A stretch of DNA of 64,000 bases, from the NCBI GenBank assembly GCA_021799485.1, contig JAJZAK010000009.1, forward strand, positions 2,850-66,849, in the 5' to 3' direction. Positions 5,195-59,334 of the stretch are shown in pieces. Positions within the stretch are counted from its first letter, which is position 1; each line of letters opens with the position of its first letter. Made by a program: the position numbers and the translations under genes. This DNA comes from a bacterium (lineage in GTDB: Bacteria; Elusimicrobiota; Elusimicrobia; UBA1565; UBA9628). The notes beneath the pieces were generated by a model that saw only the letters and a list, made by a program, of their open reading frames with translations, was not told where the DNA came from and did not search any database.

Positions 5195-7911
<2,717 letters not shown>

Positions 7912-7929: not shown

Positions 7930-9141
7930 ATGTTCAAATTATATAAACTATGGACGTTGGCTATTCGCGAAGACGCATTCTTAGAGGGCGGCCGCGTGAC
8001 GGCCGCCGCCGTCCTGCCCCCGATCTTCATCACGACGCACGAGGAACTCAGGGAGGCCGTGGAGGATTTTCGTTCGTCCCCGCGGCTGGCGATCGACACC
8101 GAGTCGAACGGTTTCTACGCCTGGCGAGAGCGGGTCTGCCTGGTCCAAATTTCCACCACGGAGCGCGATTACATCGTGGATCCGCTCGCCGTGAAGGATC
8201 TGTCGCCTCTGCGAGGGGTCATGGCCGAGCCGTCGATCGAAAAGGTCTTCCACGCGGGCGAGTACGACGTCATGTGCCTGAAGCGCGACTACGGTTTCGA
8301 GTTCGTCAACCTTTTCGACACGATGATCGCGGGAAGGCTCCTGGGCTTCAAGGAGCTGGGCCTCGCCAAGCTCATCGAGGCGCACTTCTCGGTCAAGCTC
8401 TCGAAGAAATTCCAGAAGGCGGACTGGGGTCTCCGTCCCCTATCGGCCGAGCAGGTCCGATACGCCCAAATGGACACGCACTATCTTCTCCGGCTCTCCG
8501 AAAGCCTGGAGGCGAAGCTCGCGCGGGCGGGGCGCCTCGAGGAGGCCCGGGAGGCCTTCCGGGATCTGTCCGAGACGGGCCCCCAGTCGCGCGGCTTCGA
8601 CCCGGAGGGCTGGTGGGACATCCGCGGCCGTTCCGCGGCCCCCGACGCGGCCCTTCCCATCCTGCGGGCTCTCTATCTTTTTCGGGAGCGGGAGGCCGAG
8701 CGGCGCGACCGGGCGAGCTTCCGGATCATGCCGGATCATCTTCTGCTTAGAATCGCGGTCGCCGCGCCGCGCACGAAAGAGGATCTCGCGAAAGTTCCTG
8801 GCTTCTCGGAATACCTGCGGCAGCGTTATTCGGGAACTATCCTCGATATCGTCCATAACGCCAGGCATGCGCCGGCTCCTGCCAGGCCCCAACGAGAGCC
8901 CGCGGAGCGCATGAGCGGAAGGGAGCGCAAGCTTCTGGGAGACCTTAAGCTTTGGCGCAAAACCCGCGCCGAGGCGGAGGGCCTTGATCCGGCCGCCGTC
9001 CTTTCCGGGTCCGTCTTGCGGGAGATGGCCTCCCGCGCCGCGAGAGGGGAGTCCGACTGCCTTTCCGCCCTGAGCCCCGCCAAGCGCCGCCGCTACGGCG
9101 CCGAGCTGGAGCGCCTTCTCAAGAGCGCTTCGTCTCGTTAA
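7930..9141 (+). CDS. rnd: Ribonuclease D (DEDDy 3'-5' exonuclease + HRDC domains)
   Basis: LAIDTESNGFY, HAGEYDVMCL, YAQMDTHYLL exonuclease motifs; ORF 7813 trimmed to first Met not overlapping secA start. Confidence 0.8.
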   Translation: MFKLYKLWTLAIREDAFLEGGRVTAAAVLPPIFITTHEELREAVEDFRSSPRLAIDTESNGFYAWRERVCLVQISTTERDYIVDPLAVKDLSPLRGVMAEPSIEKVFHAGEYDVMCLKRDYGFEFVNLFDTMIAGRLLGFKELGLAKLIEAHFSVKLSKKFQKADWGLRPLSAEQVRYAQMDTHYLLRLSESLEAKLARAGRLEEAREAFRDLSETGPQSRGFDPEGWWDIRGRSAAPDAALPILRALYLFREREAERRDRASFRIMPDHLLLRIAVAAPRTKEDLAKVPGFSEYLRQRYSGTILDIVHNARHAPAPARPQREPAERMSGRERKLLGDLKLWRKTRAEAEGLDPAAVLSGSVLREMASRAARGESDCLSALSPAKRRRYGAELERLLKSASSR

Positions 9142-9284: not shown

Positions 9285-10226
9285 CTAATCCGTCAGCTTG
9301 AAGACGAAGGGCTGGGCGATCTTGACCGGGACGGGGCCGGTTGCGTTTTCGGCGGGAGCGAAGCGCATGAGCCGCGCCACTTTTTCGGCCGCGGCGTCGA
9401 AATAGGGGCCCGCCGTCTTCGCGATGTCGATGTCGTGGATGAGCCCGTCGTCTCCGATGTGGAGGTAGAGGTTCACGGTCCCTTCCTTGCCTTCCCGGCG
9501 CTCGTTTTCCGGATAATAGCGCCGCAGGGCGGCTAGAATTTCATTGGCGTTGAGAAGGCGGGGCGGGATGATGATGGGGCCTCCGCCGCCGCCGGGAAGG
9601 CCGGAGCCTTTTCCGAAGGGCATTCCCAGTCCCGGGGCGTTGGAGCTCTTCGCCGATCCCGAGACGGGGCTCGCGACGCCCGCCGCCGGAGCGCCGGAAA
9701 TGAGGCTTTTCGCCGCGGCGGGCATGGCGGCTTGGTTGGCCGACGATTTCGGGGGCCGCGGCGTTGGCGTCGCAATGCGGGCCGGCGACGTTGGAGCCGG
9801 GAGCGTATGGACGGGAAGAGGCGCGGCAGGGACCGATGGCGCCGGAACGCGGGGGACGGATCGCGGCACGGGCGCCGCTGCTTTCGCCGGAGCCGCCTTG
9901 GGCGCGGGAACGGGCGCTTTGGCCGCCGGCGCCGCGGGAGCGGGCTTGGGCGCCTCGGGAACGCCCAGCGGGATGTTGGGTTTTTGGCCGAGTCCCTGCA
10001 TGCCGCCGATGCCGGGCCCGGGGATCGAGGGGATGGTCAGATCGACCTCCACCGGCGGAGGCGCCGCGGGCTGGGGCCACGGCATGAAAAGCAGCGCGGC
10101 ATGCAGGACGACGGAGCCCGCAAGACAGGAAAGAAAAAGCTGCTCGCGGCGGCTGACGCCGCGCCCGTCAAGAAAGCCCGATGCAGTCACCGTCCTGTCT
10201 TCTTCTTTAAGGAGACGAGACCTCAA
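9285..10226 (-). CDS. tonB: TonB family energy transducer (N-terminal TM anchor, Pro/Ala-rich spacer, C-terminal TonB domain)
   Basis: TM helix LFLSCLAGSVVLHAALLF, long PAPAAPAAKAPVPAPKAAP spacer, C-terminal TonB-like fold; downstream of exbB/exbD. Confidence 0.75.
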   Translation of the reverse strand: MRSRLLKEEDRTVTASGFLDGRGVSRREQLFLSCLAGSVVLHAALLFMPWPQPAAPPPVEVDLTIPSIPGPGIGGMQGLGQKPNIPLGVPEAPKPAPAAPAAKAPVPAPKAAPAKAAAPVPRSVPRVPAPSVPAAPLPVHTLPAPTSPARIATPTPRPPKSSANQAAMPAAAKSLISGAPAAGVASPVSGSAKSSNAPGLGMPFGKGSGLPGGGGGPIIIPPRLLNANEILAALRRYYPENERREGKEGTVNLYLHIGDDGLIHDIDIAKTAGPYFDAAAEKVARLMRFAPAENATGPVPVKIAQPFVFKLTD

Positions 10227-13641: not shown

Positions 13642-15291
<1,650 letters not shown>

Positions 15292-15332
15292 TCGCGCAGG
15301 CTTAGCGGCGGCTTGGCCGCCGACGACGGAAA

Positions 15333-15369
15333 GGGCCCCCGTCCGGAAGGGCGGGGGCCCTCGTTTTTA
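15333..15369 (+). terminator. Rho-independent terminator of groESL
   Basis: GGGCCCCCG-loop-CGGGGGCCC stem followed by TCGTTTTTAT. Confidence 0.75.
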
Positions 15370-15448
15370 TGCGGCATCCCGGCTTCCCTGGCCCATTTCC
15401 TCCACGACGAACATATCCCCCTCGTTGTATCGCTCAATCCCGGATAAT

Positions 15449-15516
15449 TGGTGACACCATACCTATTTCCAGCCCCCAAAACGGAGAAATCGGTATGGTG
15501 TCACTGGTTTTTTCCC
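15449..15516 (+). other. Second hairpin (13-14 bp stem, 28-nt C-rich loop) followed by T6 run; candidate small RNA 3' end or attenuator
   Basis: gtgacaccatacc ... ggtatggtgtcac then tggttttttccc; GATAAT -10-like hexamer at 15443-15448 just upstream. Confidence 0.3.
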
Positions 15517-15788
15517 GCAGGAAAGCCGCTTTTAATCGGGTTTTCTTGTTCGCATCGTTGTTCGCCCGGCGAACAGCTTTCCGGCCGATAAGCTTCTCTG
15601 TTCCGTCCATGGACTCCCGACGGAGCCTCGAACGCCGGCGCGGCGCTCACGCGCCGGCCTGACGACGAGAACGGCGCCTTCAACGGGTTTTGTTCCCCGT
15701 TGATACGCATGGTCCGTTGGGGGCGCAAGCCTCGAAAGGCCCTTCCAAGAATTGGCGGTTGAAGCGGAACATTTGTAATATCCATCGA

Positions 15789-17132
15789 ATGCGAGACAGA
15801 TTCCTCGCGCTCGGCGCCGCCGCGATCCTCGCGCCTCCACTCGCTTTCGCGGCGGCGGCGCCGTCCTCCCAGCTTCCCGCGGCCGCGAAGGCTCCGCCGC
15901 CCGCGTCGGCGCGGCTCTTGAGCTTGTCGGACTGCCTCCGGCTCGCGCTCCGGTTCTCGCCGCAAAGAATCATCGGCATCCTCCAGGCCGAAAAGGCCCA
16001 GAAGGCCCTGAAGGAATGGACGGCCAAGCGCTTGCCGCATCTCTGGGCGTACGCCGCGAACCAGCAGTCCAACGACGCGTCCATTCAGAACATGGCCTCC
16101 AACTACGATTTCATTCACTTGCAACAAGACATCAACCCCTTCGACGCGCTCTGGAAGACCGGAACCCAGCGCCGCCAGGAGCTCGATGCCGCCGTGGCGG
16201 GCCGGATCGCCAGCAAGCTCGACGTCGAGCTCCTGGTCAAGACGCTCTATTTCTCGGTTCTCCAGAGTTCGGATTCGATCGCGATGATGAACCGCGTGGA
16301 AAAGCAGCTCTATCGTCTCCAACTCAGCGTCCTTCCGCGATATACGGTCGGACGGGCGCCGCCGTTCGACCTTCTCAACGTCAGGACGCAACTTTCGGAT
16401 CTCAAGCTTAATCGCGACCTCACGCGAGCCGGCATGAGCGGGGGCCGGGAGCTTCTTGCCTTGATCGTCGGAAAGGCGGGAGGGGATGAGATCATCCTTG
16501 GGCCCATCAAGTCGCTTCCCGCCGTCCCTCCGGACGAGGACGTGCTTCGGAATCCGAGCCTCGAGTCCCTGCGGGCCCAGGTGCGGGCCGCGAAGTGGGC
16601 GCTGCGCGCCCAGCGCGCGGAGTGGCTTCCTCAGATGAGCGTCGGCCTCGACTACGGCTACGGCGGCATCGAGCCCTGGCGCTACAAGAATTTCATGCAG
16701 ACATTCGCTCCTTCCTGGGGGCGCGGGGGCCAGGTGGATCTCAACATCAACCAGCAGCTTTTTAACTGGGGCGAGATCAACGCGCGGATCGCCCAGAGGC
16801 AGAAGGACTTGGACATCGCCCAAATGAACTATAAGAGCCGGTATCAATCCCTGCGCCAGGCTTACGTCTCCGCCCGGATACGCGCCGCCGCGCATCGAAG
16901 CGACGACGAGCGGCGGCGCCATCTCTTCGCGGTCGCCAGGCTCGCGGCCGACACCTCGATCGACCGGTATCAAAGGGAGGCGACCACGATCCTGGAGGCG
17001 GCGGGAGCGGTCTCCTTTTGGATGCAGACCCTCATCACCGAGAGGACCGATTATTATTCCTACCTGACGGACGTGGCCACGATCGAGAGACTGATCGGAC
17101 AGGACGTGGTCGATTACGGGACCGCGCGGTGA
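15789..17132 (+). CDS. Outer membrane efflux protein (TolC family)
   Basis: Signal peptide MRDRFLALGAAAILAPPLAFAAA; two-repeat OMF architecture with coiled-coil-forming segments; first gene of TolC-MFP-RND operon. Confidence 0.78.
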   Translation: MRDRFLALGAAAILAPPLAFAAAAPSSQLPAAAKAPPPASARLLSLSDCLRLALRFSPQRIIGILQAEKAQKALKEWTAKRLPHLWAYAANQQSNDASIQNMASNYDFIHLQQDINPFDALWKTGTQRRQELDAAVAGRIASKLDVELLVKTLYFSVLQSSDSIAMMNRVEKQLYRLQLSVLPRYTVGRAPPFDLLNVRTQLSDLKLNRDLTRAGMSGGRELLALIVGKAGGDEIILGPIKSLPAVPPDEDVLRNPSLESLRAQVRAAKWALRAQRAEWLPQMSVGLDYGYGGIEPWRYKNFMQTFAPSWGRGGQVDLNINQQLFNWGEINARIAQRQKDLDIAQMNYKSRYQSLRQAYVSARIRAAAHRSDDERRRHLFAVARLAADTSIDRYQREATTILEAAGAVSFWMQTLITERTDYYSYLTDVATIERLIGQDVVDYGTAR

Positions 17133-45224: not shown

Positions 45225-46835
45225 TTAGAGTCCGCCAAAAAACCCCGCGAGATTGTTCCACGTAGCGTTTGTCGCGCCAAGACTCCCGCCAATAAACGGG
45301 GAGGCGGGAAATGTCCACGTTCCGTAAGTGCATTGTGAGCCCTGAGCACCATTGTGAGCGACCAGCATGCCTGGGAACTCTTTGGGAGCGGTCCACAGGT
45401 CGACGGATTCACCATTGAGACAAGACATGGCGGGATTGTCCGTCTCGAAGTCGAGGATTTGGCCGACATGGCGCGCATCCGAAAGACCTTCGATGGTGAT
45501 GTTTTTGACCCGAGTCATAAAGACCGACTGCCAAGTCCCCTGGTTGTCCCAGAGGCCGACGGCTCCGTCAGACTCCGCCATGCGACCGGAAACCTGCGAA
45601 GGAAGCGCAAAAAAATGCGTTTGTTCCCCGGCTATCCCGGACTGGCAGACTTCTATCTGCCTCAATATGTAGGTCCCTAGGACCCCCCCTGGGTGGTCAG
45701 TGCAATACTTGTACGGTTGAGGGAAAAGAGACTGCATTATGCCGATGGCGCCTCCAGCGGCTGCGGGTGCAGCCGCTCCCCCGAGCGCCGTTCCTCCCCC
45801 CGTGCAAGCGAATCCCGGAGGCAAGTTGCGGCAGTTTTGGCCACCAGGGCCTATCCCCTGAGATTGTTGTGGGAGACAATCTCCCATCACGAGTTGAGGT
45901 GCTTTCGTCGCTTCGCTTATGGCTCCAGAAATGCTGTTGATTATGCCGTTAGTTGGAACCGCGGCGCCGGCCGCAGGAATCGGGTACACGGGACCCACGA
46001 TGTGCGGGCACCACCCGCCGACTCCAACGGAAGGACAAACCCAATGCTCAACGACAAAGCCGCTCTGGCTGAGCGCGGCATTCATGTTCGGGTCAGGGGA
46101 AGCCTGGCCGCCGCCAGGGCAAGCCATCGGCGGCTGGGGAAGCGGGATGCAGTGGCGGGCGATGGAGACGTTCGCGCCGGCCTGATTGGCCGATTGGCTG
46201 ACCGCTCCGGCGGCGGGACCGTGGCCGTTCGGCGCCGCCGCGAATAAGGTTGGCATAGTAACCGGAATGGAAATCTCACCGGCAGGGCATGCAGAGCTAT
46301 TGCTCGTGGAACTGCCGGCCCCCGACTCCGCTATGGTCCCCGTGGGAGCGCTGGTCCCCGAACCCAACACGGAGCCTGAACCACTCCCGCCGTCGCTCGC
46401 TGGGCCGCCCGGATTGCGGATGCAGCGATTTCCCGCCGAGATCGTATCCGGAGGGCAATGAGGGCCACCACTTGTATAGCCGCCACTGTCGCCTCCAACC
46501 GGGGGGGAGCCCGTTGCGGGTGTGGAAGAATTCCCGCCGCCTCTAACAGGAGGAGATTCCTTCCCCGGGAAGCCGCCGTTTGTGGAGCCACTAGAGGAGC
46601 CGTCACCGCCTTGGACTTGGCCAACCGGCGTCTTGAGCAACGAGCGAAGCTGTTGGAACGTGGCCTCCGCCTGGGATGGTGTCATATAATAAACTTCGCT
46701 CGAAATATTGACCGGAGAATCCCGGCCTTGCCCCTCAGCGGCGGAAGCGACCACCACCATGTTGGCCGCAAATAAAAAAGCGGCTCCGGGCGCCGCGAAA
46801 TCTTTGAACAGCCTACACAAAATGGCGTCTTTCAT
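45225..46835 (-). CDS. Secreted Cys-rich protein, novel family (paralog B, with Gly/Ser-rich N-terminal extension)
   Basis: Signal peptide; core HCIPLPQPPMACPGGGQ...HWVCPSVGVGGWCPHIVGPVYP and second block FPQPYKYC...VCQSG...HFF aligned to paralog A; SD GAGGAGG. Confidence 0.6.
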   Translation of the reverse strand: MKDAILCRLFKDFAAPGAAFLFAANMVVVASAAEGQGRDSPVNISSEVYYMTPSQAEATFQQLRSLLKTPVGQVQGGDGSSSGSTNGGFPGKESPPVRGGGNSSTPATGSPPVGGDSGGYTSGGPHCPPDTISAGNRCIRNPGGPASDGGSGSGSVLGSGTSAPTGTIAESGAGSSTSNSSACPAGEISIPVTMPTLFAAAPNGHGPAAGAVSQSANQAGANVSIARHCIPLPQPPMACPGGGQASPDPNMNAALSQSGFVVEHWVCPSVGVGGWCPHIVGPVYPIPAAGAAVPTNGIINSISGAISEATKAPQLVMGDCLPQQSQGIGPGGQNCRNLPPGFACTGGGTALGGAAAPAAAGGAIGIMQSLFPQPYKYCTDHPGGVLGTYILRQIEVCQSGIAGEQTHFFALPSQVSGRMAESDGAVGLWDNQGTWQSVFMTRVKNITIEGLSDARHVGQILDFETDNPAMSCLNGESVDLWTAPKEFPGMLVAHNGAQGSQCTYGTWTFPASPFIGGSLGATNATWNNLAGFFGGL

Positions 46836-49579: not shown

Positions 49580-50344
49580 CTAAACCGAGGCCATCGCCAC
49601 GGCGATTTCCGAGCGGAGCTCCGGGTACGCGGCCGGATTTTTAAGGAAGGCCCGCGCTTGGAGGGTGGACGCGCAGCCAAGAAGCTCTTTGGCGTCCGGG
49701 CCGTCGGCGGTCACGATCATGGGAACGCCGCGGGTTTTGCCTCCATCCCGAAGAAGCTGGGCAAGAATGAAGCCGTTGAAATCGGGAAGCCGCAGATTGA
49801 GGATGATCAGGGAGGGCCTGAATTCCGTGGCCATCCGCATTCCCTCGTCGCCGCCGCGTGCCACGCGGAGATCGCAGCATAGCTCCGTGGCGGCCCCGCG
49901 CGCCGCCTCCCGGAAAGCGGCGTCATCGTCGATGAGGAGAATGGTTCTTGGGAATCGCGACGTCGGTCCCGCCAGAAGGCATTTGAGATGCCTTAGGAGC
50001 GCATGGGGGTCGTTCGTGATCTCGGATTTAGTCAGGAAGATCTCCGCGCCGGAGCGCCGCGCCGCCTCGGCATCATCGGGACTCTCCTTGATTCCCGATA
50101 TCATGACGACCGGAATGCCGTGGGTGGTGTCGTCGAGCTTGAGCGTCTTTAAGACATCGCGGGAGGAAAAGCCGCTTTTGAGGATGCAATCGAGGAGGAT
50201 GATATGAGGATGGAAGGTCTTGGTGAGCTTGACGCCGGTCGGACCATTTCCCGCCCTCGCGGTCTGGAAACCAAAGATGACCAGGCATCGGCACAGGTAG
50301 TCGGAGAAGTCCTCGTCGTCGTCGATGATCAATATCCGTCGCAT
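49580..50344 (-). CDS. Tandem receiver-domain protein (REC-REC; second receiver has Asn at phospho-acceptor position)
   Basis: REC1: IIDDDEDF...IILLDCIL...VVMISG; REC2: LLIDDDAAF...LIILNLRLPDFNG...MIVTAD. Confidence 0.8.
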   Translation of the reverse strand: MRRILIIDDDEDFSDYLCRCLVIFGFQTARAGNGPTGVKLTKTFHPHIILLDCILKSGFSSRDVLKTLKLDDTTHGIPVVMISGIKESPDDAEAARRSGAEIFLTKSEITNDPHALLRHLKCLLAGPTSRFPRTILLIDDDAAFREAARGAATELCCDLRVARGGDEGMRMATEFRPSLIILNLRLPDFNGFILAQLLRDGGKTRGVPMIVTADGPDAKELLGCASTLQARAFLKNPAAYPELRSEIAVAMASV

Positions 50345-50362
50345 GATGTTTTCATGGCGCGA

Positions 50363-50395
50363 TATTTGACAACAAAGACTAGAACATGGTAAATT
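50363..50395 (+). promoter_or_regulatory. Sigma70-like promoter (TTGACA-N17-TGgTAAATT) for HTH-REC gene
   Basis: ttgacaacaaagactagaacatggtaaatt in the AT-rich divergent intergenic region. Confidence 0.3.
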
Positions 50396-50461
50396 ACCAA
50401 AACAAAGTAATAGAAGTATACGGGCAAATCAATCAGAAGACGGTAAAAATTCGGTAACTCA

Positions 50462-51058
50462 GTGGCTTTCAAAACCTATACGACCCACGAGATCGCGAAG
50501 TTTTGCGACGTCTATCCTTCAAGCGTCCTTCATTGGATCAAAGAGGGAAAGCTTAAGGCGCACGTGACGCCCGGCGGGCATCGTCGCGTCGCCCGAGAGG
50601 ATCTGATCCGCTTTTTAAAGCAGTTCCAAATGCCCATTCCGGCGGAATTACAAGCCGGGAGGCGCCGTATCCTCGTCGTCGATGACGAACCCGAGATGGC
50701 GCGGATGCTGGAAAAGATCTTCCGCATGCATGCCGACCTTTTCGACATCGAGGTCTGCGGCTCCGGGATCGACGCCCTCATCAAGATCGGCCAGTCCCCT
50801 CCCGATCTCGTCGTCCTCGACGTCGTGATGCCCAAGATGGACGGCTTCCAGGTCTGCCGGATTTTGAAGACGCGTCCGGAAACGAGCTCGGTGCGGATCA
50901 TCGCTTTGACGGGCAAGAAGGTTCCGATCAACGAGCACAAGCTCGACGAGCATCACATCGACGCGTTTTTCCGCAAGCCTTTCGATGTCGAGCAGTTGCT
51001 GGTCAAGGCCGCGCAGTTGCTGGGAGTGACGTTGGCGGCGGCTCCGGATACGCCGTAA
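50462..51058 (+). CDS. Response regulator with N-terminal excisionase/MerR-type HTH and C-terminal receiver domain (GTG start)
   Basis: YTTHEIAKFCDVYPSSVLHWIKEGKLKAHVTPGGHRRVAREDLIRFL HTH_17-like; REC ILVVDDEPEM...LVVLDVVMPKMDG...IIALTGK. Confidence 0.75.
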   Translation: MAFKTYTTHEIAKFCDVYPSSVLHWIKEGKLKAHVTPGGHRRVAREDLIRFLKQFQMPIPAELQAGRRRILVVDDEPEMARMLEKIFRMHADLFDIEVCGSGIDALIKIGQSPPDLVVLDVVMPKMDGFQVCRILKTRPETSSVRIIALTGKKVPINEHKLDEHHIDAFFRKPFDVEQLLVKAAQLLGVTLAAAPDTP

Positions 51059-51066
51059 AGCCTCCG

Positions 51067-52815
51067 ATGGAGAACGCGGCAGAGCGTAATCGCGGCGCCG
51101 TTCCCGCCGTCCATGGGCTTCTCGAGCATTTGGAACGGGAAGGTGTCCGGCATATCTTCGGAATTCCCGGAGGCCCCGTCATCGGCCTTTACGACGCCCT
51201 CTATGACCGCGGCGTCATCGCGCCGGTTCTCGCCAAGCACGAGGAAGGCGCGGCGTTCATGGCGGACGGCTACGCGAGAATCTCCGGCGGCATCGGCGTC
51301 TGCTGCACGACGGCCGGCCCGGGCGCGACGAACGCCCTGACGGGCGTCGCGGTGGCTTACGCCGACCACAGCCCCGTGCTTATCCTGACGGCGCAGGTGC
51401 CGATCCGGCATTTCGGCAAGGGCGCTTTCCAAGAATCAAGTCCCGAAGCCGTTGATGTCGTCGAGCTCTATCGCCCCGTCACGAAGTGGAGCACGATGAT
51501 CCATCATCCCGAGGCGACGGGCCCGGTGATCCGCAAAGCCCTGCGCCTGATGACGAGCGGACGGCCCGGGCCCGTTCATATCAACCTTCCTTGCGACGTC
51601 ATGACGCAGATGGTCGCGCGGGACTTGTTCCCCCCGGAAACGCGCGGCTCTCGCGCCCGAACCTTCGACCGTCTCTCGGTCAAGGAAGCCGCATCGTGGC
51701 TTTTGTCCGCGAACCGTCCGGCGCTGCTCGCGGGCCATGGCGTCAACCTCGCCCAGGCTTGGGGGCCCTTAAGAGGGCTCGCCGAGAGCTTCGGCATCCC
51801 CGTCGCGACGACCTTCAAGGCCAAGGGAGCTCTCGCCGAGGACCACCCTCTTTCCCTCGGCGTCTTCGGCTATTCGGGTTCGGCCTTGGCCCGGGACTAT
51901 CTCCTGGACGAGGCGGACGCCATTCTCGTCGCGGGAACGAGCCTCGGCGAGGCGTCCAGCTGCGGTTGGGACGTCCGGCTTGGCAAGAAAAAGGCGCTCC
52001 TTCAAATCGACGTTGATCCAGGCGCGATCGGAAGGAACTTTCCCGTCACGGTCGGGCTCGTCGGCGACGCGGGGGCCGTCTTGACGGAGATCCGATTCGA
52101 GATGGAACGGGTCTTGCGGAAAAACCCGCTGGAATTTAAGCCGCGGCACCATGAATTCATCCGCCCGGCGAAGCTCCCGACGGACGATTCAGAGGACAAG
52201 GCTGGGTTGGGGCCCTTGGGATCCCGGCGTATCCTCGGGGAGCTTCGCCGGGCTCTCCCGCGGGACGCGGCCCTCTTTGTCGACAATGGGACGATCCGGA
52301 CCTGGTCCGGGGCCCATTTCCCCGTTCTGCGGGAGAATTCCTTCTTCGTCAATATGGGATTGGCCGGGATGGGCTTCGCGGTCGCCGCGAGCATCGGCGG
52401 GAAGCTCTCGGCGCCGGGCCGCGTCGTCGCCGCGTTGGTGGGCGACGCCGCCTTCGCCATGAACGGCATGGAAATACACACGGCGGTCGAGCACCGCGTG
52501 CCTGTCGTCTGGATCGTCATCAACAACGGCGGCCACGGCATGATTTACCATGGAGAGCGAATGCTCTATGGAAAAAAGTTCAAAAGCTCCGTGTTTGCTG
52601 GAAGGCTTAAAATCGCCGATATCGCCCGCGCGATGGGAGCCTCCGCGTTTCGAGTCGATCATCCCGGCGAAATGGCGGGCGCCCTGCGGCGGGCCTTCCG
52701 CGTGGGAGGGCCCTGCGTCGTCGACGTCGCCGCCGATCTTCACGAGGTCCCGCCGATGGGAGCGCGGGTCGCGAACGTCGGGCGAGCCCTCGCGGGCGTC
52801 CCGGCCTCCGCATGA
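51067..52815 (+). CDS. Thiamine-pyrophosphate-dependent enzyme (acetolactate synthase large subunit / benzoylformate decarboxylase family)
   Basis: N-terminal Pyr domain (GIPGGPVIGLYDAL), central domain, C-terminal PP domain with GDAAFAMNGMEIHTA...NNGGHGMI TPP-binding motif. Confidence 0.85.
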   Translation: MENAAERNRGAVPAVHGLLEHLEREGVRHIFGIPGGPVIGLYDALYDRGVIAPVLAKHEEGAAFMADGYARISGGIGVCCTTAGPGATNALTGVAVAYADHSPVLILTAQVPIRHFGKGAFQESSPEAVDVVELYRPVTKWSTMIHHPEATGPVIRKALRLMTSGRPGPVHINLPCDVMTQMVARDLFPPETRGSRARTFDRLSVKEAASWLLSANRPALLAGHGVNLAQAWGPLRGLAESFGIPVATTFKAKGALAEDHPLSLGVFGYSGSALARDYLLDEADAILVAGTSLGEASSCGWDVRLGKKKALLQIDVDPGAIGRNFPVTVGLVGDAGAVLTEIRFEMERVLRKNPLEFKPRHHEFIRPAKLPTDDSEDKAGLGPLGSRRILGELRRALPRDAALFVDNGTIRTWSGAHFPVLRENSFFVNMGLAGMGFAVAASIGGKLSAPGRVVAALVGDAAFAMNGMEIHTAVEHRVPVVWIVINNGGHGMIYHGERMLYGKKFKSSVFAGRLKIADIARAMGASAFRVDHPGEMAGALRRAFRVGGPCVVDVAADLHEVPPMGARVANVGRALAGVPASA

Positions 52816-53828
52816 GCCGCGTCGCGCTTGTCGAGGAGCACAACAAGCTTCTCAACGCCGCTCTGGCCTACCGCGACTCCAAGCCGCTCCTTGTCGCCCT
52901 GGACTGCGACCTTTTCAGCTGGATCGATCGAGGGCGGACAAGCGCCCACGCCCTGGGCCGCGCCCTAAAGCTGGATCCGCGGGCCGTCGGGATCGTCCTG
53001 GACGCGGTGGCGGCGCTCGGCTTCCTCGACAAACGGGACGGCCAGTACGCCAACACCCCGCTTTCGAGGAGGCTGCTCGTTTCCACAAGCCCTCATTACC
53101 GGGGCGCCAACATGAGATACCAGAACAGGATGTGGGAGGCTTGGTCGGACTTGAAGGGCGTCCTTCGCCGGGGGCGGCCGCGGCGCGCCCTCGTCGATTG
53201 GATCGCGAAGAATGCCTTCACGCCGGACTACGTCAGGGCGATGGGCGACGTCGCCTGGACTCCAGCGCGGGACCTGGCCTCCCGGCTCGATCTGGAAGGC
53301 GTCGAGAGGATTCTTGACGTGGGTTGCGGTCCCGGCGTCTACAGCCGGGCCCTGGTGGAGCGCGAGCCGGCGATCGAAGCGACGCTGCTCGATTATCCCA
53401 AGACGCTCCGCGTGGCTCGGGGGCTCCTCAAGGCTCATCCGCATGCGCGCCGGTTTCGGTTCAAGCCCGCCGATTTCCTGCGAGACGATCTGGGCCGGGG
53501 GGCCTATGACTTGGCGCTTTTGTCGAACGTCACGCATATGGAGAGCCCGGCCAACAACGAACGGCTCGTTGAGAAGGCGGTGCGGGCGCTCAAGCCCGGC
53601 GGGCGACTCGTGATCCACGACTATATCCGCGACCCTGGCGGACGGGGCTCGAAATTCGTCGCTATGTTGGCGGTCCATCTCCTTGTTTTCACGGGACGCG
53701 GAAACGTCTATACTCTCCAGGACTATGTCCGCTGGATGCGGCGATCCGGGCTCCGGGAGATCGGCCACAAGCGCGTCGCGCTCGACACGATCTACCCCTC
53801 GACGGCCGTCATCGGCCGCAAGCCTTAG
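52812..53828 (+). CDS. Class I SAM-dependent O-methyltransferase (family 2, with N-terminal dimerisation/wHTH domain)
   Basis: ILDVGCGPGVYS SAM motif I, DLALLSNVTHM, LKPGGRLVIHDY; ATGA coupling to TPP enzyme. Confidence 0.8.
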   Translation: MSRVALVEEHNKLLNAALAYRDSKPLLVALDCDLFSWIDRGRTSAHALGRALKLDPRAVGIVLDAVAALGFLDKRDGQYANTPLSRRLLVSTSPHYRGANMRYQNRMWEAWSDLKGVLRRGRPRRALVDWIAKNAFTPDYVRAMGDVAWTPARDLASRLDLEGVERILDVGCGPGVYSRALVEREPAIEATLLDYPKTLRVARGLLKAHPHARRFRFKPADFLRDDLGRGAYDLALLSNVTHMESPANNERLVEKAVRALKPGGRLVIHDYIRDPGGRGSKFVAMLAVHLLVFTGRGNVYTLQDYVRWMRRSGLREIGHKRVALDTIYPSTAVIGRKP

Positions 53829-55296
53829 CCTCCTCGTCCTGTTTTCGGCCTCCGCGTCCGCGTCTTCCCCCGCGGCTCCACAACGCATTCTCAAGATCTC
53901 CGACGACGTCGTCGAACCGATCAGCCTCGACCCTCTCAGGGAATTCTCCGAGAAGTACTACACGATCATCCAGCAGATTTTCGACAGCCTCGTTCGATTT
54001 GATCCCGACGGCCGCCTGGAGCCAGATCTCGCGACGAGTTGGCGGTGGGTCGATGATAAGACGCTGGAATTCAAGCTGCGCCGCGGGGTGCGATTCCATG
54101 ACGGGGAGCCCTTTGACGCGGAGGCCGTCCGCGTCACGATCAAGAAGTTCATCGACCCCCAATCGGCCTTCCCCGGCGCGGGGATGCTTGACTCGATCGC
54201 GGGCGCCGAAGTCGTCGACCCACTGACGATCCGCATTAAGACGAAATACCCGGACGGCATCCTTCTCCACCGTTTGGCGGGACTCGTCCCGATCCTGCCT
54301 CCGCGTTATTTGGCCGGAAAGGGGAGGCGCTATTTCGGCCGGCATCCCGTCGGGACCGGCGCTTTCCGATTTGTCTCCTGGGAGCCGGGCAAAGCCATTC
54401 ATCTTGGGGCCAACAGGGACTATTGGCGTCAGGGCTTCCCCAAAGCTGACGGGCTCGCTTTTTTGTTCCTTCCGACAGCCGAGCAAATCGCCGGCCTTTT
54501 GGATGGGCGGGTGGATATCGTCACGGAGCTTCCCGGGACGGCAACCATGGCGGTGGTGAAAAGCGGCCGCGCGAAGATCGTGAAGAAGGGGGTTTTCTAC
54601 ACCGTCGCGGGAAGCGTCAACGTGAGTTCGAGCGTTCTTTCCGACGTTCGAGTGCGGCGCGCCATCAACTACGCGATCAATCGAGCCGATCTGATCCGCT
54701 ATGACCTTCTCGGCAACGGCGTGGCGTTGCCTTCCTTGACGATGAAGGGGGAGATCGGCCACGATCCGGCTTTGACGCCCTACCCCTATGATCCGGCCGA
54801 GGCGCGACGGCTTCTTCGAGAAGCCGGCTACCCTCGGGGGCTGACGCTCAAGGGAGTCGTCAAGGTTCAAGGCGAGAGGACCATGCGGATCATCGCGCGC
54901 CAATTGGAGCGGGTTGGCATTCGTCTTGTGACGACGAAAACGACGGATGCCACCGTCATCCGCGACATCCAGCGGGGCGGCTGGGATTTCACCTTCGGGG
55001 GTTGCCCGGATCCATTGGCGCACTCCTTCTTCATTCAGTTTATTTTTTTATCGTCTTACTCTCCCTACAGCATCCATAAAAGCGCCGTCTTTGACCGCCT
55101 GATGGCGGAGATGACGTCGACGCTCGATCCGTCGGGGCAGGATCGTGCCGGCCGGAAATTGGACCGCTACGTCCATGACCAAGCCTTGAGCCTGTTTACC
55201 TACCAGCGCATCAAGACATATGGCGTGGCAAAGGACATTCATTTCGTCGCCTACAAAACCGGCATGCCGTACTTTTATTTAAGTTCCATCGAATGA
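53725..55296 (+). CDS. ABC transporter substrate-binding protein, family 5 (peptide/nickel/opine type)
   Basis: SBP_bac_5 features (ATSWRWVDDKTLEFKLRRGVRFHDGEPFDA, PVGTGAFRFVSWEPG); only available ATG starts overlap the OMT gene by >100 nt; RR + hydrophobic + ASA suggests Tat/Sec signal. Confidence 0.7.
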   Translation: MSAGCGDPGSGRSATSASRSTRSTPRRPSSAASLSLLVLFSASASASSPAAPQRILKISDDVVEPISLDPLREFSEKYYTIIQQIFDSLVRFDPDGRLEPDLATSWRWVDDKTLEFKLRRGVRFHDGEPFDAEAVRVTIKKFIDPQSAFPGAGMLDSIAGAEVVDPLTIRIKTKYPDGILLHRLAGLVPILPPRYLAGKGRRYFGRHPVGTGAFRFVSWEPGKAIHLGANRDYWRQGFPKADGLAFLFLPTAEQIAGLLDGRVDIVTELPGTATMAVVKSGRAKIVKKGVFYTVAGSVNVSSSVLSDVRVRRAINYAINRADLIRYDLLGNGVALPSLTMKGEIGHDPALTPYPYDPAEARRLLREAGYPRGLTLKGVVKVQGERTMRIIARQLERVGIRLVTTKTTDATVIRDIQRGGWDFTFGGCPDPLAHSFFIQFIFLSSYSPYSIHKSAVFDRLMAEMTSTLDPSGQDRAGRKLDRYVHDQALSLFTYQRIKTYGVAKDIHFVAYKTGMPYFYLSSIE

Positions 55297-55664
55297 AGCC
55301 GAAACCGGCATCCGCGCGCTTCGGCCGATGGGGCGCGGGGGTCTCTCGGCCCATCGGAACGCTGCTGGTCGACAGCGTCGCCGCGGAGACCGGCCGCAGG
55401 AGCTTTTCAATTTTTAGGATCACGATGAAGCCGCGAGCGAGCCATCCGGCCATATGGCATGCCCGCACCTCGGAATTCTTTCTCGTGACGAGGGGGGCCT
55501 TGCTTGCCGTCATCAATGGGCGGCCCCGGCGGATGCGGAAGGGAGACGGCGCGCATCTTGCGCCTGGAGCCGTGCATGAATTCCGGGCGGGTCCGTCTGG
55601 TTGCGAGGTGATGTCCGTCTTCGTTCCCGCCCTCAATTTACGCAAGCCGGATATCAGGCGATAG
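55293..55664 (+). CDS. Cupin-domain protein
   Basis: HPAIWHARTSEFFLVTRGAL...GDGAHLAPGAVHEF two-His cupin motifs; ATGA coupling to SBP stop. Confidence 0.6.
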   Translation: MKPKPASARFGRWGAGVSRPIGTLLVDSVAAETGRRSFSIFRITMKPRASHPAIWHARTSEFFLVTRGALLAVINGRPRRMRKGDGAHLAPGAVHEFRAGPSGCEVMSVFVPALNLRKPDIRR

Positions 55665-55668
55665 TTTC

Positions 55669-57834
55669 GTGCCCAAGACCCTGCGCTGGCGGCTGATTCT
55701 CGCCATCGTCCCCGTGGTGATCGCGGGCATCGTCGTGGTCGTCGGAGCGCAGTACTATTTAAGCCGCAGCCAAATTTTGGCGGGCATCAACCAGGAAATC
55801 CAGAACCGCGCGGCGCGCACGGCGGCCGCCGTCGACAGCCTGCTCCGCCAGCGCCGCAATGATCTTCTGACCCTGTCGGACTCTCCGCTTATCTCCGATT
55901 ACCATCACAGCGAGGATTACGGCCTGAAGGCCGAGGCCGAGTCCTATCGCCGGGAGCTGGAGATGTATCTGCTGCAATTTGCAAGGCGTTCCGCCGTCTA
56001 CGACGCCATTTTGTTCGCGAATGCTCGCGGCCGCGCCGTCTGCCGCATCGAGCAGGAAAAAGCCTTGCCGCCCGGGGAGGCGCTGGGCTCGGCTGGTTTC
56101 TTCGTCGCGGCTCGCCGTCTGCCGTCCGGCGCCGCATGGGTTTCCGGGCCGGAGCGCCTGCCGGACGGGCACCCCGTCCTCTATTTCGCCGCGCCGCTTC
56201 GCGACGAGGCGAAAAATTTCGAGGGGGTGCTCGCGCTCGCCTACGACTTAGGCCCCGTCTCGGCGCTCTTGAAAGCGAGCTATCTGGGAAACGGGGGGCA
56301 GGCTTGGCTCCAGATGGGGCGCCAGGCGTTCCCAGGCCCGCCAAGCGGGCCTGGGCGGCCGGCGCTTGTGGCGTCCGTCCCGTTAAAAGCGATGCCATGG
56401 ACGGTCATGGCCATGGCGCCCCGAGCCGAGTTCCTGCGCCCGCTCAAGCGCGTTCGCGATTTCGGAATCGCCATCGGCGTCGCGGCCGCCGCAATCGTGG
56501 TCCTGGTGATTCTGCTGTTTTGTTGTTCCAATACCCGGCCCCTTGCCGCTCTCGCCGAGGCCGCGCGGGAGATCGGGAGGGGGCGGCTCGACCGCCGCGT
56601 CGTCTTGGCCGATGGAGGAGAGATGGGAGCTCTTGCCGGGGCCTTCAACGAGATGGCGCGGAACCTCGAGGATAACCGGAAGTCCGGCGCCCTCCTGCGG
56701 GCCCAGCTCATCCAATCGGAGAAACTCTCCGCGGTCGGGCAGTTGATATCGAGCGTCGCCCATGAACTCAACAACCCCCTCGCGGCCGTCTGCGGGTACG
56801 TCCAAATCATCTTTACACAGAATCCCCCGGAATCGTTGCGCGAGGACCTGCGCCGCGTCCATCACAGCGCCCTGCGCTGCCGCAAGGCCGTGGAAAACCT
56901 TCTCTTTTTCGTGCGCCGCAGCGGCGGCGAAAAGTCGCGCGTGGATGTGAACGCCGCCGTCCGAGCGGCCCTCGATCTCCTCGAATACCGTCTCAAAAAG
57001 ACCGAGGACGTCGCCGTGGACCTCGACCTGGCATCCTCCATGGGGGAGATTGGAGCGGATTTTCAGCAGATCGTGCAGGTTCTGGTCAATTTAATCAACA
57101 ATGCCTGCGACGCCATGGAAGGCGCGCCGCCCCGCCAGGAGGGCAAGCGCATCGCCGTTCGCACCCGTCAGGACGCGGAGAAGACGGAAATCTTGGTTGA
57201 GGACAATGGTCCCGGGGTCCCGGAGGCGGTTCGGGCGAGCGTGTTCGAGCCATTTTTCACGACGAAAGAGCCGGGGCGGGGGACGGGTCTCGGACTCTCG
57301 ATCTGCCGGCAGATCGCCGAGGAGCATGGAGGAACGATCAGCTTTTCGAATCTCGAGAAAGGAGGGGCCTCGTTCCGCCTTCTCCTGCCGCGGTCGTCGC
57401 CGGAAGACTTGGCCGCCTTGAAGCCCGTGGCTGACGCGCAGGAGAGCTTGCCGCCGGTCCCCGGCCGCCGGGTCCTCGTGGTTGAAGACGAGAAGGACAT
57501 CGCCCAGATCATCGCGAGATTCCTGCACGACGAGGGGGATATCGCGGACATCGTCGAGCCGCCCGAGGCCCTGCGGATCGCGACCTCGAGGCCTTACGAC
57601 CTGATCATCAGCGACTTCGAGATGGAAAAGACCAAGGGGCCGGACCTGTACGAAGCCTTGATCGAGCGCGATCCTGGATGGTCCTCGAAGTTCCTCTTTG
57701 TCACCGGGGATATTCTCAACCCGCGTGTTTTAGAGTTCCTGCGGAAAACAGAGGCGGCCTGCCTCGCCAAGCCTTTCGATTTGGAGGACCTTAGGCGAAC
57801 GGTGCGCCGGTTGCTTTCTCGCCGCCGGACGTAG
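55669..57834 (+). CDS. Hybrid sensor histidine kinase (2 TM, periplasmic sensor, HAMP, HisKA, HATPase_c, C-terminal REC); GTG start
   Basis: H-box VAHELNNPLAAV, N/G boxes (NLINNACDAM, DNGPGVP, GTGLGLSIC), REC VLVVEDEKD...LIISDFEM...FVTGD. Confidence 0.85.
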   Translation: MPKTLRWRLILAIVPVVIAGIVVVVGAQYYLSRSQILAGINQEIQNRAARTAAAVDSLLRQRRNDLLTLSDSPLISDYHHSEDYGLKAEAESYRRELEMYLLQFARRSAVYDAILFANARGRAVCRIEQEKALPPGEALGSAGFFVAARRLPSGAAWVSGPERLPDGHPVLYFAAPLRDEAKNFEGVLALAYDLGPVSALLKASYLGNGGQAWLQMGRQAFPGPPSGPGRPALVASVPLKAMPWTVMAMAPRAEFLRPLKRVRDFGIAIGVAAAAIVVLVILLFCCSNTRPLAALAEAAREIGRGRLDRRVVLADGGEMGALAGAFNEMARNLEDNRKSGALLRAQLIQSEKLSAVGQLISSVAHELNNPLAAVCGYVQIIFTQNPPESLREDLRRVHHSALRCRKAVENLLFFVRRSGGEKSRVDVNAAVRAALDLLEYRLKKTEDVAVDLDLASSMGEIGADFQQIVQVLVNLINNACDAMEGAPPRQEGKRIAVRTRQDAEKTEILVEDNGPGVPEAVRASVFEPFFTTKEPGRGTGLGLSICRQIAEEHGGTISFSNLEKGGASFRLLLPRSSPEDLAALKPVADAQESLPPVPGRRVLVVEDEKDIAQIIARFLHDEGDIADIVEPPEALRIATSRPYDLIISDFEMEKTKGPDLYEALIERDPGWSSKFLFVTGDILNPRVLEFLRKTEAACLAKPFDLEDLRRTVRRLLSRRRT

Positions 57835-58684
57835 GCGCTTTCACGCCCCTGCTCATCACGAATTCATAGGGGATATCGAATCCCGTCGGCGTCATATACG
57901 CGGCCGCCTTGGCCAGGACGTCCTCCTTGAGCGCCTGCCGCTTCGCCGGTTCGAGGCTTTGGATCAAGACGCCCGTGCGGCCCGCTCCGGAGGCCATCGT
58001 CTCCCAATAGGCTTCCGGGGACTCGAAGCGGAATTTTCCCGAGAGCCGCCGGGACTCGACGCGCGCGAGACCCGCCTGAGAAAGGGCGTTCTCCAGGATT
58101 CCCGGCGGGCCGAAGTCGTAGATCGTGGGGGCGCCTGGGATCTTGAGCTCGGGGACATGCTTGATCATGGTCTTGTTGAGAAGACTCGTGAACAGCATCT
58201 TGTCCGCTTCCCCTTGGACGAGGCAGGAGACTCGTCCTCCAGCCTTGGCGACCCGCGCCATTTCGCCTAGAGCGAGCTTCGGCAGGGCGAAAAGCATGAG
58301 GCCCAGCTGGCAGATGACGGCGTCAAAGGAACCGTCGGGGAATTCCAGCCTCTGGGCATCCATGCGCCGCCAAACGATCGGCGCCGAACCGGCCTGCCGC
58401 GTCCGGGCCGAGGCGATGGAGAGCATTTTCTCCGCGAAATCGACGGCGTCGACCGTCCCCTGGGGCCCAACGGCCGCGGCGGCGCGGAGGCTCGCGGCGC
58501 CGGGGCCGCAGGCGACGTCAAGGACCTTTTCTCCCGGCCGGATGCCGGAGAACTCGATGAATCCATCGGTGACGGCTCTAAAGAGGAGCCGGCTGAGGTG
58601 GTCGTAATGTTGCGCGGCTTCGTTCCAAATGTCTGCTGACATCTGGTCGAAAACCTTGGGATCGAAAAAGGACATTTTCTCCAT
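57791..58684 (-). CDS. Class I SAM-dependent methyltransferase (UbiE/COQ5-like)
   Basis: VLDVACGPG motif I, FDAVICQLGLM, AKAGGRVSCLV. Confidence 0.8.
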   Translation of the reverse strand: MEKMSFFDPKVFDQMSADIWNEAAQHYDHLSRLLFRAVTDGFIEFSGIRPGEKVLDVACGPGAASLRAAAAVGPQGTVDAVDFAEKMLSIASARTRQAGSAPIVWRRMDAQRLEFPDGSFDAVICQLGLMLFALPKLALGEMARVAKAGGRVSCLVQGEADKMLFTSLLNKTMIKHVPELKIPGAPTIYDFGPPGILENALSQAGLARVESRRLSGKFRFESPEAYWETMASGAGRTGVLIQSLEPAKRQALKEDVLAKAAAYMTPTGFDIPYEFVMSRGVKAPTSGGEKATGAPFA

Positions 58685-58762
58685 AGCACACTATACCACT
58701 ATCGTCGGCGAGGCGGGGAAGGCAGATGTTCGACTTGGGGCTCTGACTTCGGTATACTTGAG

Positions 58763-59290
58763 ATGAAGGTTTCCCCTCGACTTATGCCCGACGAAAAGCC
58801 AGAGAAGGCCGGTCACCCGGCATTTAAGCCGGTCAAGGAATTCGGCAGGATTCAAATCTCTCCCACCACGGAACTCGTCTTCTACGCGGACGTCTATCGT
58901 GGGCATTCCTACGTCTCGATACGGACTTTTCTTAAAAGCGGCGAATATACCGGGCCGACGAAGGCGGGCGTGACGCTGACCGCCGAGATCGTCGTCGGCA
59001 TGATCAAAGCCATCGAAGCCCTGCCGCCGGACGGAAACGCCGCCCCGGAGAAAGAGCTTGCGCGCTACACCCGCAGGGTCGGAGTCGATCTCGTGCTGCG
59101 CGTGGCGCGGTTCAGGGATTCCATCGGCATCGACCTGAGGGAGTGGATCGAAGACGCCAGCTACAAGGGTTGGTCCAAAAAGGGAGTCCGCATCCCCTAC
59201 GGCGAGGCGCCGAGGGCCGTCGAGTGCCTCAAGGCGATGAGGACGTTCCTGGCCGAATCGCCGAAATCCGAAGCGAAGCCCGAATCGTGA
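58763..59290 (+). CDS. Hypothetical protein with internal tandem duplication (possible tandem PC4/YdbC-like ssDNA-binding folds)
   Basis: Two ~55-aa segments with shared pattern (hydrophobic-R-x-IxIR ... Y.G.TK.GV.L); 175 aa. Confidence 0.4.
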   Translation: MKVSPRLMPDEKPEKAGHPAFKPVKEFGRIQISPTTELVFYADVYRGHSYVSIRTFLKSGEYTGPTKAGVTLTAEIVVGMIKAIEALPPDGNAAPEKELARYTRRVGVDLVLRVARFRDSIGIDLREWIEDASYKGWSKKGVRIPYGEAPRAVECLKAMRTFLAESPKSEAKPES

Positions 59291-59334
59291 AGCCCCCGTC
59301 CCAAGGGAGGCGCGGCCCTTCAAACGCGCCTATC

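Follow-up and report, generated by a model that had tools for sequence, protein, structure and literature searches.

We analysed a 64,000-nucleotide stretch of an Elusimicrobiota genome assembly (contig JAJZAK010000009.1; the whole stretch is here referred to as the window) and found that six plus-strand genes at positions 50462 to 57834 form an operon-like module in which enzymes are encoded together with a sensory set. The central enzyme is a thiamine diphosphate (ThDP)-dependent protein that, by sequence comparison, is best called a CybE/BbmA-type carboligase. It is accompanied by an O-methyltransferase (OMT), an exported solute-binding protein (SBP), a small cupin, a hybrid histidine kinase with a periplasmic dCache domain, and a response regulator with an N-terminal DNA-binding domain. 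We tentatively propose that the enzymes make a tailored aryl alpha-hydroxy-beta-keto acid (AHKA) or acyloin, that this compound is sensed by the SBP-kinase pair, and that the regulator feeds back on the operon, a reading that we regard as a close call falling slightly on the doubtful side.

The ThDP enzyme is a predicted CybE/BbmA-type carboligase

The source annotations label the ThDP enzyme "acetolactate synthase large subunit," and its best matches among the NCBIfam models are indeed acetolactate synthase (ALS) models. However, none of the NCBIfam cut-offs for ALS, AlsS, glyoxylate carboligase (Gcl), or Xsc was reached. The enzyme scored 381 bits against a cut-off of 538 for biosynthetic ALS (TIGR00118), 282 against 510 for AlsS (NF006378), 385 against 866 for PRK06276, and 294 against 791 for the Gcl model. 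In a search of all solved structures, the top relative was BbmA from Brevibacillus (PDB 8x3x; 532 bits, E value of 1.9e-158), followed by CsmA (282 bits), the best ALS (263 bits), and catabolic ALS structures (210 bits), so that BbmA received twice the score of any ALS. The window enzyme and BbmA are 46% identical over 574 amino acids (aa) by BLASTP, and the residue aligned with G484 of BbmA is also a glycine in the window enzyme. Neighbour-joining placed the window enzyme in a clade that also holds every module-type enzyme described below, BbmA, and homologues with a KASIII-like neighbour. ALS-like sequences of 30 to 35% identity were distant from this clade; the position of one sequence (L012) was disregarded as an artefact of open reading frame (ORF) extraction. 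An original prediction, made from the letters of this stretch, had named firm clustering with catabolic ALS as the outcome that would count against it, and neither the AlsS model nor the catabolic ALS structures gave any sign of such clustering. It had also set the gene apart from branched-chain amino-acid biosynthesis, and this judgement stands, given the missed ALS cut-offs and a window in which no ilvN/ilvH small subunit, ilvC, ilvD, or alsD gene was found among the neighbouring genes.

These comparisons indicate that the enzyme is not an ALS and that its family is one of biosynthetic carboligases rather than of decarboxylases or catabolic enzymes. Other identities were considered and rejected. 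Oxalyl-CoA decarboxylase, Gcl, and sulfoacetaldehyde acetyltransferase were either below curated cut-offs or far below the BbmA score, and a pairing of 2-ketoarginine methyltransferase with 5-guanidino-2-oxopentanoate decarboxylase was too weak (20.7 bits against 425 and 301 against 500, respectively). The enzyme adds a new member to a family whose characterisation is recent. Two papers, both citing Liu et al., Nat Chem 2025, as the primary work, present CsmA and its partner BbmA (spelled "BpmA" in one) as CybE homologues and AHKA synthases (PMC12395478, PMC13307353). CybE itself joins two alpha-keto acids, such as an arylpyruvate with an aliphatic 2-oxo acid. The resulting AHKA is either handed on to CybF, a KASIII-like furanolide synthase, or loses CO2 spontaneously, which yields an acyloin (PMC8777810, PMC13288894).

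The six genes form a conserved module

The module consists of the following features (domains by Pfam):

50345-50461, +: AT-rich promoter/leader region of 117 nucleotides (nt)
50462-51058, +: HTH_17 and Response_reg (REC) protein, 198 aa, GTG start (HTH_17, 2.7e-10; Response_reg, 8e-22)
51067-52815, +: ThDP enzyme, TPP_enzyme_N/M/C, 582 aa
52812-53828, +: family-2 S-adenosylmethionine (SAM)-dependent OMT, Dimerisation and Methyltransf_2, 338 aa
53725-55296, +: SBP_bac_5 protein (5.6e-69), 523 aa from ATG 53725; the mechanical ORF begins at TTG 53683
55293-55664, +: small cytoplasmic mono-cupin, Cupin_2, 123 aa, with conserved His56/Glu61/His95
55669-57834, +: membrane hybrid kinase, dCache_1-HAMP-HisKA-HATPase_c-Response_reg, 721 aa

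The genes are tightly packed, with successive spacings of 8, -4, -104, -4, and 4 nt. ATGA start/stop overlaps join the ThDP gene to the OMT gene (GCATGAGC at 52812) and the SBP gene to the cupin gene (CGAATGAAG at 55293). The six plus-strand genes, the domains originally assigned to them, both ATGA overlaps, and the operon-like packing were thus all recovered as predicted. The one amendment to the gene set concerns the SBP start, which we place at ATG 53725, so that the last 104 nt of the OMT gene are shared with the SBP gene.

To compare the module across genomes, neighbourhoods were gathered through exact-protein look-ups and a scan of species-representative genomes, and the six window proteins were searched by tblastn against all 96 resulting loci. 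Relatives of the ThDP enzyme at 49 to 69% identity number in the hundreds, and those with names come almost entirely from Elusimicrobia or Elusimicrobiota metagenome-assembled genomes (MAGs). The order HTH_17-REC, ThDP enzyme, SBP_bac_5, dCache hybrid kinase was found, as far as the contigs extend, in 12 of 12 distinct Elusimicrobiota relatives (L004, L005, L007, L009, L010, L011, L017 to L021, and the short fragment L006), whose ThDP enzymes are 46 to 68% identical to that of the window. The same order occurs in L014, a MAG labelled Proteobacteria, bringing the related loci to 13. Across the module loci, identity to the window proteins is 38 to 60% for the regulator, 46 to 68% for the ThDP enzyme, 32 to 63% for the OMT, 47 to 69% for the SBP, 28 to 58% for the cupin, and 37 to 51% for the kinase. 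The HTH_17-REC regulator is the first module gene at every related locus, and the flanks are unrelated at every one. Because the gene order recurs while the flanks differ, we consider the six genes a discrete, vertically conserved module. Conservation of genomic context, which had been suggested as a check, is thus greater than expected by chance, and the co-conservation of the regulator and the hybrid kinase bears out the proposal that both belong with the enzymes.

The SBP and the kinase form a putative sensor without an adjacent transporter

The position ATG 53725 is the only start that keeps the signal segment of the SBP, LSLLVLFSASASA, which straddles the OMT stop codon, and the JGI annotation uses the same start. 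Sec signal peptides are clearly recognisable in SBP orthologues. In the kinase, an N-terminal transmembrane (TM) segment is followed by the dCache_1 domain, a second hydrophobic stretch, and a HAMP domain, and the kinases of many relatives have additional GAF and PAS domains. Because of the Sec signal peptides and the TM-dCache-TM topology, the SBP and the dCache domain of the kinase both face the periplasm. The SBP gene lies just upstream of the kinase gene, usually with only the cupin gene between them. No ABC permease or ATPase gene was found directly beside the SBP gene at any locus examined; the only nearby permease-domain gene, in the Rokubacteria locus L029, lies past the kinase gene and an opposite-strand ORF.

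Sensor kinases that are activated by SBPs are typically encoded beside the sbp gene (PMC11113362). A review of SBP signalling describes CBP, an SBP_bac_5 protein that acts on the dCache-like hybrid kinase ChiS, along with the pair LuxP-LuxQ and the SBP_bac_5 autoinducer-2 binder AibA (PMC8050422). The module likewise encodes an exported SBP beside a kinase with a periplasmic dCache domain. No transporter gene is adjacent, and this arrangement is one that would be expected of an SBP-dependent two-component sensor. Among solved structures, the SBP comes closest to proteins that bind peptides, glutathione, opines, or nickel, with scores of 110 to 170 bits that do not fix its ligand. The regulator has a standard receiver domain at its C terminus and an HTH_17 (MerR/excisionase-like) domain at its N terminus. 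To our knowledge, an N-terminal HTH_17 domain on a receiver protein is an uncommon arrangement, and we know of no characterised member.

The 104-nt overlap between the SBP and OMT genes is read in different frames and encodes a long Arg/Ser-rich N-region (..STPRRPSS..) before the core of the SBP signal peptide. In relatives, the SBP and OMT genes are separate or overlap by 4 to 13 nt, and the SBP signal peptides are short and ordinary.

Tailoring genes vary between loci

The tailoring genes are the only variable part of the Elusimicrobiota-type module, in which the cupin is a usual member. One OMT is encoded in the window, L004, L005, and L007, two tandem OMTs in L011, and a B12-binding radical-SAM enzyme together with an OMT in L009 and L010, while L019 lacks an OMT. 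In L014, the place of the OMT is taken by genes for a flavoenzyme of the Trp-halogenase family (144 bits) and for a Phenol_MetA_deg channel of the outer membrane (13863 to 16268), which hints at a halogenated aromatic product with a dedicated outer-membrane route. Such variation is the pattern that would be expected of product diversification. Because the tailoring involves halogenase and OMT genes, the product is predicted to be aromatic, and the earlier suggestion of an aromatic or keto-acid compound as substrate or product agrees with our reading.

The OMT has a DVGCGPG SAM motif and an invariant His242 within SNVTHxE. In family-2 OMTs, the catalytic base sits where His242 lies, which suggests that the OMT methylates a hydroxyl group. 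Its nearest solved structures are small-molecule methyltransferases (MfnG, DsyB, RedM, and SibL; 77 to 98 bits), and ASMT is also among its relatives; MfnG, SibL, ASMT, and DsyB act on amino-acid-like aromatics or on a 2-hydroxy acid. The cupin is missing or replaced in L009 and L019. Two ORFs that intervene between the SBP and kinase genes were considered as possible cupins and rejected: that of L009 looks membrane-like and aligns poorly with cupins, and that of L029 is not a cupin.

The enzyme family has furanolide and sensor contexts

Outside the module, two kinds of neighbourhood were seen for the ThDP enzyme. A KASIII/CybF-like gene adjoins it in a Brevibacillus-like contig (L012), Thermosporothrix (L013), Polyangiaceae (L016), and Nitrospirota (L022), and this KASIII neighbourhood is the furanolide-type context of the gene. 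More distant homologues, at 40 to 46% identity, lie beside periplasmic sensors. In two Rokubacteria loci (L025 and L029) and an unclassified MAG (L023), the ThDP gene is followed downstream by genes for an SBP_bac_5 protein and a dCache-HAMP-GAF-histidine kinase (HK)-REC protein, and one or two short unannotated ORFs separate the SBP gene from the ThDP gene; the layout of L025 is drawn from tblastn matches only, and that of L029 includes Pfam. In a Pseudomonadota MAG (L031) and in Desulfurivibrionaceae (L035), the ThDP enzyme is accompanied by an sCache_3-HAMP-HK protein and a PAS-HK-REC protein. A Desulfobacteraceae locus (L041) has a divergent OMT gene, the ThDP gene, and an SBP_bac_5 gene, and an Ozemobacteraceae locus (L015) has the ThDP gene, a cupin gene, and a convergent PAS kinase gene. 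At several of the sensor-context loci outside Elusimicrobiota, the ThDP enzyme is the only enzyme present. Neither a KASIII/CybF-like (ACP_syn_III) gene nor an AMP-binding/CoA ligase gene was found in the window module or in the gene tables of the related modules; both kinds of gene do occur beside other homologues of the ThDP enzyme. A periplasmic sensing device is thus the recurring non-furanolide partner of the ThDP enzyme, and its type varies while the enzyme remains constant.

A single predicted promoter precedes the module

A near-consensus sigma70-like promoter (TTGACA-18-TAAATT, a 10/12 match in a promoter scan) lies at 50366 to 50395 and is the sole such match upstream of the genes. 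The spacings within the operon leave no room for internal promoters; independent promoters had been named as evidence that would count against the prediction. Terminator-like matches were near background, with 15 found and 10.1 ± 3.2 expected. The leader had no match to an Rfam family (a riboswitch or other known RNA). The heptamer AACAAAG occurs at 50371 and 50401, which are two of its four occurrences in 64 kb on both strands; these two copies in the promoter/leader lie 30 nt apart.

At related loci, two to five tandem 9-nt units (yTAACAnnn or TTACwAnnn), each with a conserved hexamer, start at the -10 box and reach into the regulator leader (L019, ~8340 to 8400; L007, ~9360 to 9395; L009, ~7715 to 7750; L011, ~9330 to 9380; L020, upstream of 8287). 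The units of L019 are CTAACATAT, CGAACACAA, CTAACATAG, CTAACAATG, and TTAACACAA, and L011 has three copies of AAACATAGT. In L020, the units are in reverse-complement orientation (TATTGTATT and TATTGTTAT), and in L004, L005, and L014, the sequence ATTACTAnn-nTTAyAATA abuts the start codon. The paired motif occurs once per 20-kb locus in these relatives and is confined to this promoter. The 9-nt repeat element may be an operator for the HTH_17-REC protein. Its 9-nt period is not that of the helical repeat.

In L004 (7897 to 7993) and L005 (14600 to 14704), gaps of 97 to 105 nt separate the cupin and kinase genes and share the motif TACACTATGG just 5' of the kinase start, which may be an internal promoter in these two loci. 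The corresponding gap in the window is only 4 nt.

Proposed mechanism and alternatives

In the mechanism that we propose, the ThDP enzyme would couple two 2-oxo acids in the cytoplasm, probably including at least one arylpyruvate, to form an AHKA that would readily lose CO2 to give an alpha-hydroxyketone (acyloin). The OMT would decorate this product, and the cupin would perhaps act on it too. The compound would then exit, to the periplasm or out of the cell, and in the periplasm the orphan SBP_bac_5 protein and the dCache domain of the kinase would together recognise it. Phosphotransfer, either direct or via an Hpt protein encoded elsewhere, would set the state of the HTH_17-REC protein, which would act at the single strong promoter before its own gene and thereby close an autoregulatory loop. 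Autoinduction by the released product is suggested, indirectly, by the variable tailoring genes, by the minimal loci that have only the enzyme and a sensor, and by the conserved elements at the operon's own promoter.

The original prediction had instead read the cluster as one for the uptake and modification of a compound, and on this point we depart from it. We prefer a reading in which the compound is made and sensed over one in which it is imported and modified, because no transporter gene is adjacent, a sensor kinase gene stands beside the SBP gene, and the enzyme belongs to a carboligase family. SBP_bac_5 proteins do usually serve ABC importers, and orphan SBPs can share permeases, so that the SBP might feed a transporter encoded elsewhere, bringing in an aromatic or keto-acid compound from outside for the ThDP enzyme, the OMT, and the cupin to break down or modify. 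Cupins and ThDP enzymes are also known in aromatic catabolism, and L014 has the Phenol_MetA_deg channel. Against this, no permease or ATPase gene lies directly beside the SBP gene at any locus (the permease-domain gene of L029 being set apart by the kinase gene and an opposite-strand ORF), the ThDP enzyme falls in a carboligase clade with CybF-linked biosynthetic homologues, and methylation, halogenation, and radical-SAM tailoring are biosynthetic rather than catabolic signatures. We consider uptake improbable. A furanolide or butenolide cluster of the CybE/CybF type is less probable still: its first enzyme would be of the same family, and close homologues in L012, L013, L016, and L022 do adjoin a KASIII/CybF-like gene, but the window module and the gene tables of its relatives show neither that gene nor a CoA ligase gene. 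The idea that an ALS (AHAS or AlsS) merely adjoins unrelated signalling genes rests on the source annotation and the ranking of NCBIfam models, and it is effectively refuted by the missed cut-offs, the BbmA score, the missing ilv/alsD context, and a synteny that is kept across phyla.

The strongest competitor is a metabolite operon regulated by an external cue, in which the sensors read, for example, a peptide, a metal, or a plant or algal aromatic and switch on the synthesis of a tailored acyloin or AHKA that is not itself sensed. The product would then have another role, whether antimicrobial, antifouling, redox, or metal-binding. We think this explanation rather unlikely. The enzyme-family and conservation evidence is the same for this explanation as for the sensing of the product, CybE-family products feed bioactive furanolides (PMC12395478, PMC8777810), and the nearest solved relatives of the SBP bind peptide, glutathione, nickel, or opine. 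What speaks for a sensed product instead is that the minimal loci have the ThDP enzyme as the only enzyme beside the sensors and that the sensor changes between phyla (SBP_bac_5 and dCache in some, sCache_3 and PAS-HK in others) while the enzyme stays. Because the sensor type changes and the enzyme is constant, sensing of the enzyme product is the easier explanation.

Several observations weigh against a sensed product and its feedback loop. Co-conservation of enzymes and sensors would arise just as readily from sensors that respond to an external cue and do no more than turn on the enzymes. Identity of 46% to BbmA leaves the substrate and product of the enzyme unfixed, and no exporter is encoded in the window. 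Phosphotransfer from a hybrid kinase to a regulator needs an Hpt protein, and a search of the kinases of the window, L005, L007, and L014, and of the rest of the cluster, turned up no Hpt domain; the Hpt protein may be encoded elsewhere. The repeat in the window leader (50366 to 50440) is weak and is clear only in relatives: the two-unit pattern was not matched there at up to two mismatches, and Tandem Repeats Finder reported nothing in the window promoter/leader.

A broader claim extends the proposal from this module to the enzyme family, namely, that ThDP carboligases of the BbmA/CybE type are a new class of autoinducer synthase whose variably methylated or halogenated aryl acyloins or AHKAs are read by an SBP_bac_5 protein, a Cache hybrid kinase, and an HTH_17-REC regulator. 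We hold this to be possible but doubtful. A putative signal synthase, a sensor kinase, and a response regulator are encoded in one operon-like unit in the window and the 13 related loci, a layout shared with two-component quorum-sensing operons of the agr, com, phc, cqs, and lqs types. In the literature searched, we found no report that links ThDP or acyloin enzymes with quorum sensing or that describes this module.

Genes flanking the module

The window has a G+C content of 60 to 67%, and no tRNA genes were found in its 64 kb. The neighbours of the module encode a cyclophilin, a HAD phosphatase, a ParA-like protein, a REC protein, a UbiE-like methyltransferase, and a Tsp protease. The module is flanked upstream by a REC-REC gene (49580 to 50344, minus strand) and downstream by the UbiE-like methyltransferase gene (57791 to 58684, minus strand). 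Both were considered as module members and rejected, as neither is co-conserved with the module at other loci. The upstream gene is divergently transcribed and encodes a 254-aa protein in which two stretches match a receiver domain and which has no output domain; the AT-rich region that lies between this gene and the module is common to both. In many relatives, some receiver-domain gene is divergent from the module, yet it is not orthologous to the 49580-50344 protein. Downstream, the final 44 nt of the hybrid kinase gene (57791 to 57834) also belong to the convergent UbiE-like gene, and no terminator-like site was found between the two genes.

Two further ORFs have no Pfam match, one of 536 aa at 45225 to 46835 and one of 210 aa at 58691 to 59323, both on the minus strand. 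For the former, gene calls disagree between two public assemblies of the same sequence (146 and 67 aa in one, 536 aa in the other). For the latter, gene callers favour a plus-strand gene of 168 aa with a faint PC4 match.

Significance and comparison with known systems

If the proposal is true, a new enzyme class would join the short list of autoinducer synthases, and chemical communication would for the first time become accessible to study in Elusimicrobiota, whose members are known almost entirely through metagenomes. It would also imply lineage-specific cell-cell signalling in the largely uncultured Elusimicrobiota and in some Rokubacteria and Desulfobacterota, along with a chemical convergence with the alpha-hydroxyketone signals of Vibrio and Legionella. 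Cassettes that combine biosynthesis and receptor are portable to heterologous hosts, which makes the hypothesis testable without culturing the organism. Even if the operon is regulated by an external cue, hundreds of entries labelled "acetolactate synthase large subunit" would be reassigned to CybE/BbmA-type carboligases, the CybE family has a second, non-furanolide genomic context, and a conserved pair of SBP_bac_5 protein and Cache kinase is identified without an adjacent transporter.

The ThDP enzyme resembles BbmA, CsmA, and CybE in its three-domain ThDP fold, and it shares a clade, as well as 46% identity, with BbmA. The difference lies in the neighbourhood: the genes of BbmA and CybE adjoin that of a CybF/KASIII-like furanolide synthase, whereas the window has an OMT, an SBP, a cupin, and a two-component system instead. 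The large subunits IlvB, IlvI, and AlsS share the ThDP superfamily and the domain order, at ~30 to 35% identity, but the window protein lies below all of the curated ALS cut-offs and has no small subunit or ilv/alsD context.

On the sensory side, CBP-ChiS and LuxP-LuxQ likewise comprise an exported SBP encoded beside a dCache-like hybrid kinase, and CBP is also an SBP_bac_5 protein (PMC8050422). In contrast to the module, in which no transporter gene adjoins the SBP gene, CBP also serves a transporter, and ChiS binds DNA itself, while the window has a separate HTH_17-REC protein. The CqsA/CqsS system of Vibrio and the LqsA/LqsS/LqsR system of Legionella share with the module a synthase gene that is clustered with that of a sensor kinase, which is a hybrid in CqsS, and in the Lqs system also with that of a response regulator (PMC3376566). 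Their signals are alpha-hydroxyketones, the class that arises from AHKA decarboxylation (PMC3376566, PMC8777810) and to which the product here is predicted to belong. Unlike CqsA and LqsA, the window synthase depends on ThDP rather than on pyridoxal phosphate and has no homology to either; the substituents of its product are predicted to be aromatic or tailored rather than long-chain alkyl, and the sensor consists of an SBP and a dCache kinase rather than a polytopic protein. The resemblance to the Cqs and Lqs systems would thus be functional and chemical only.

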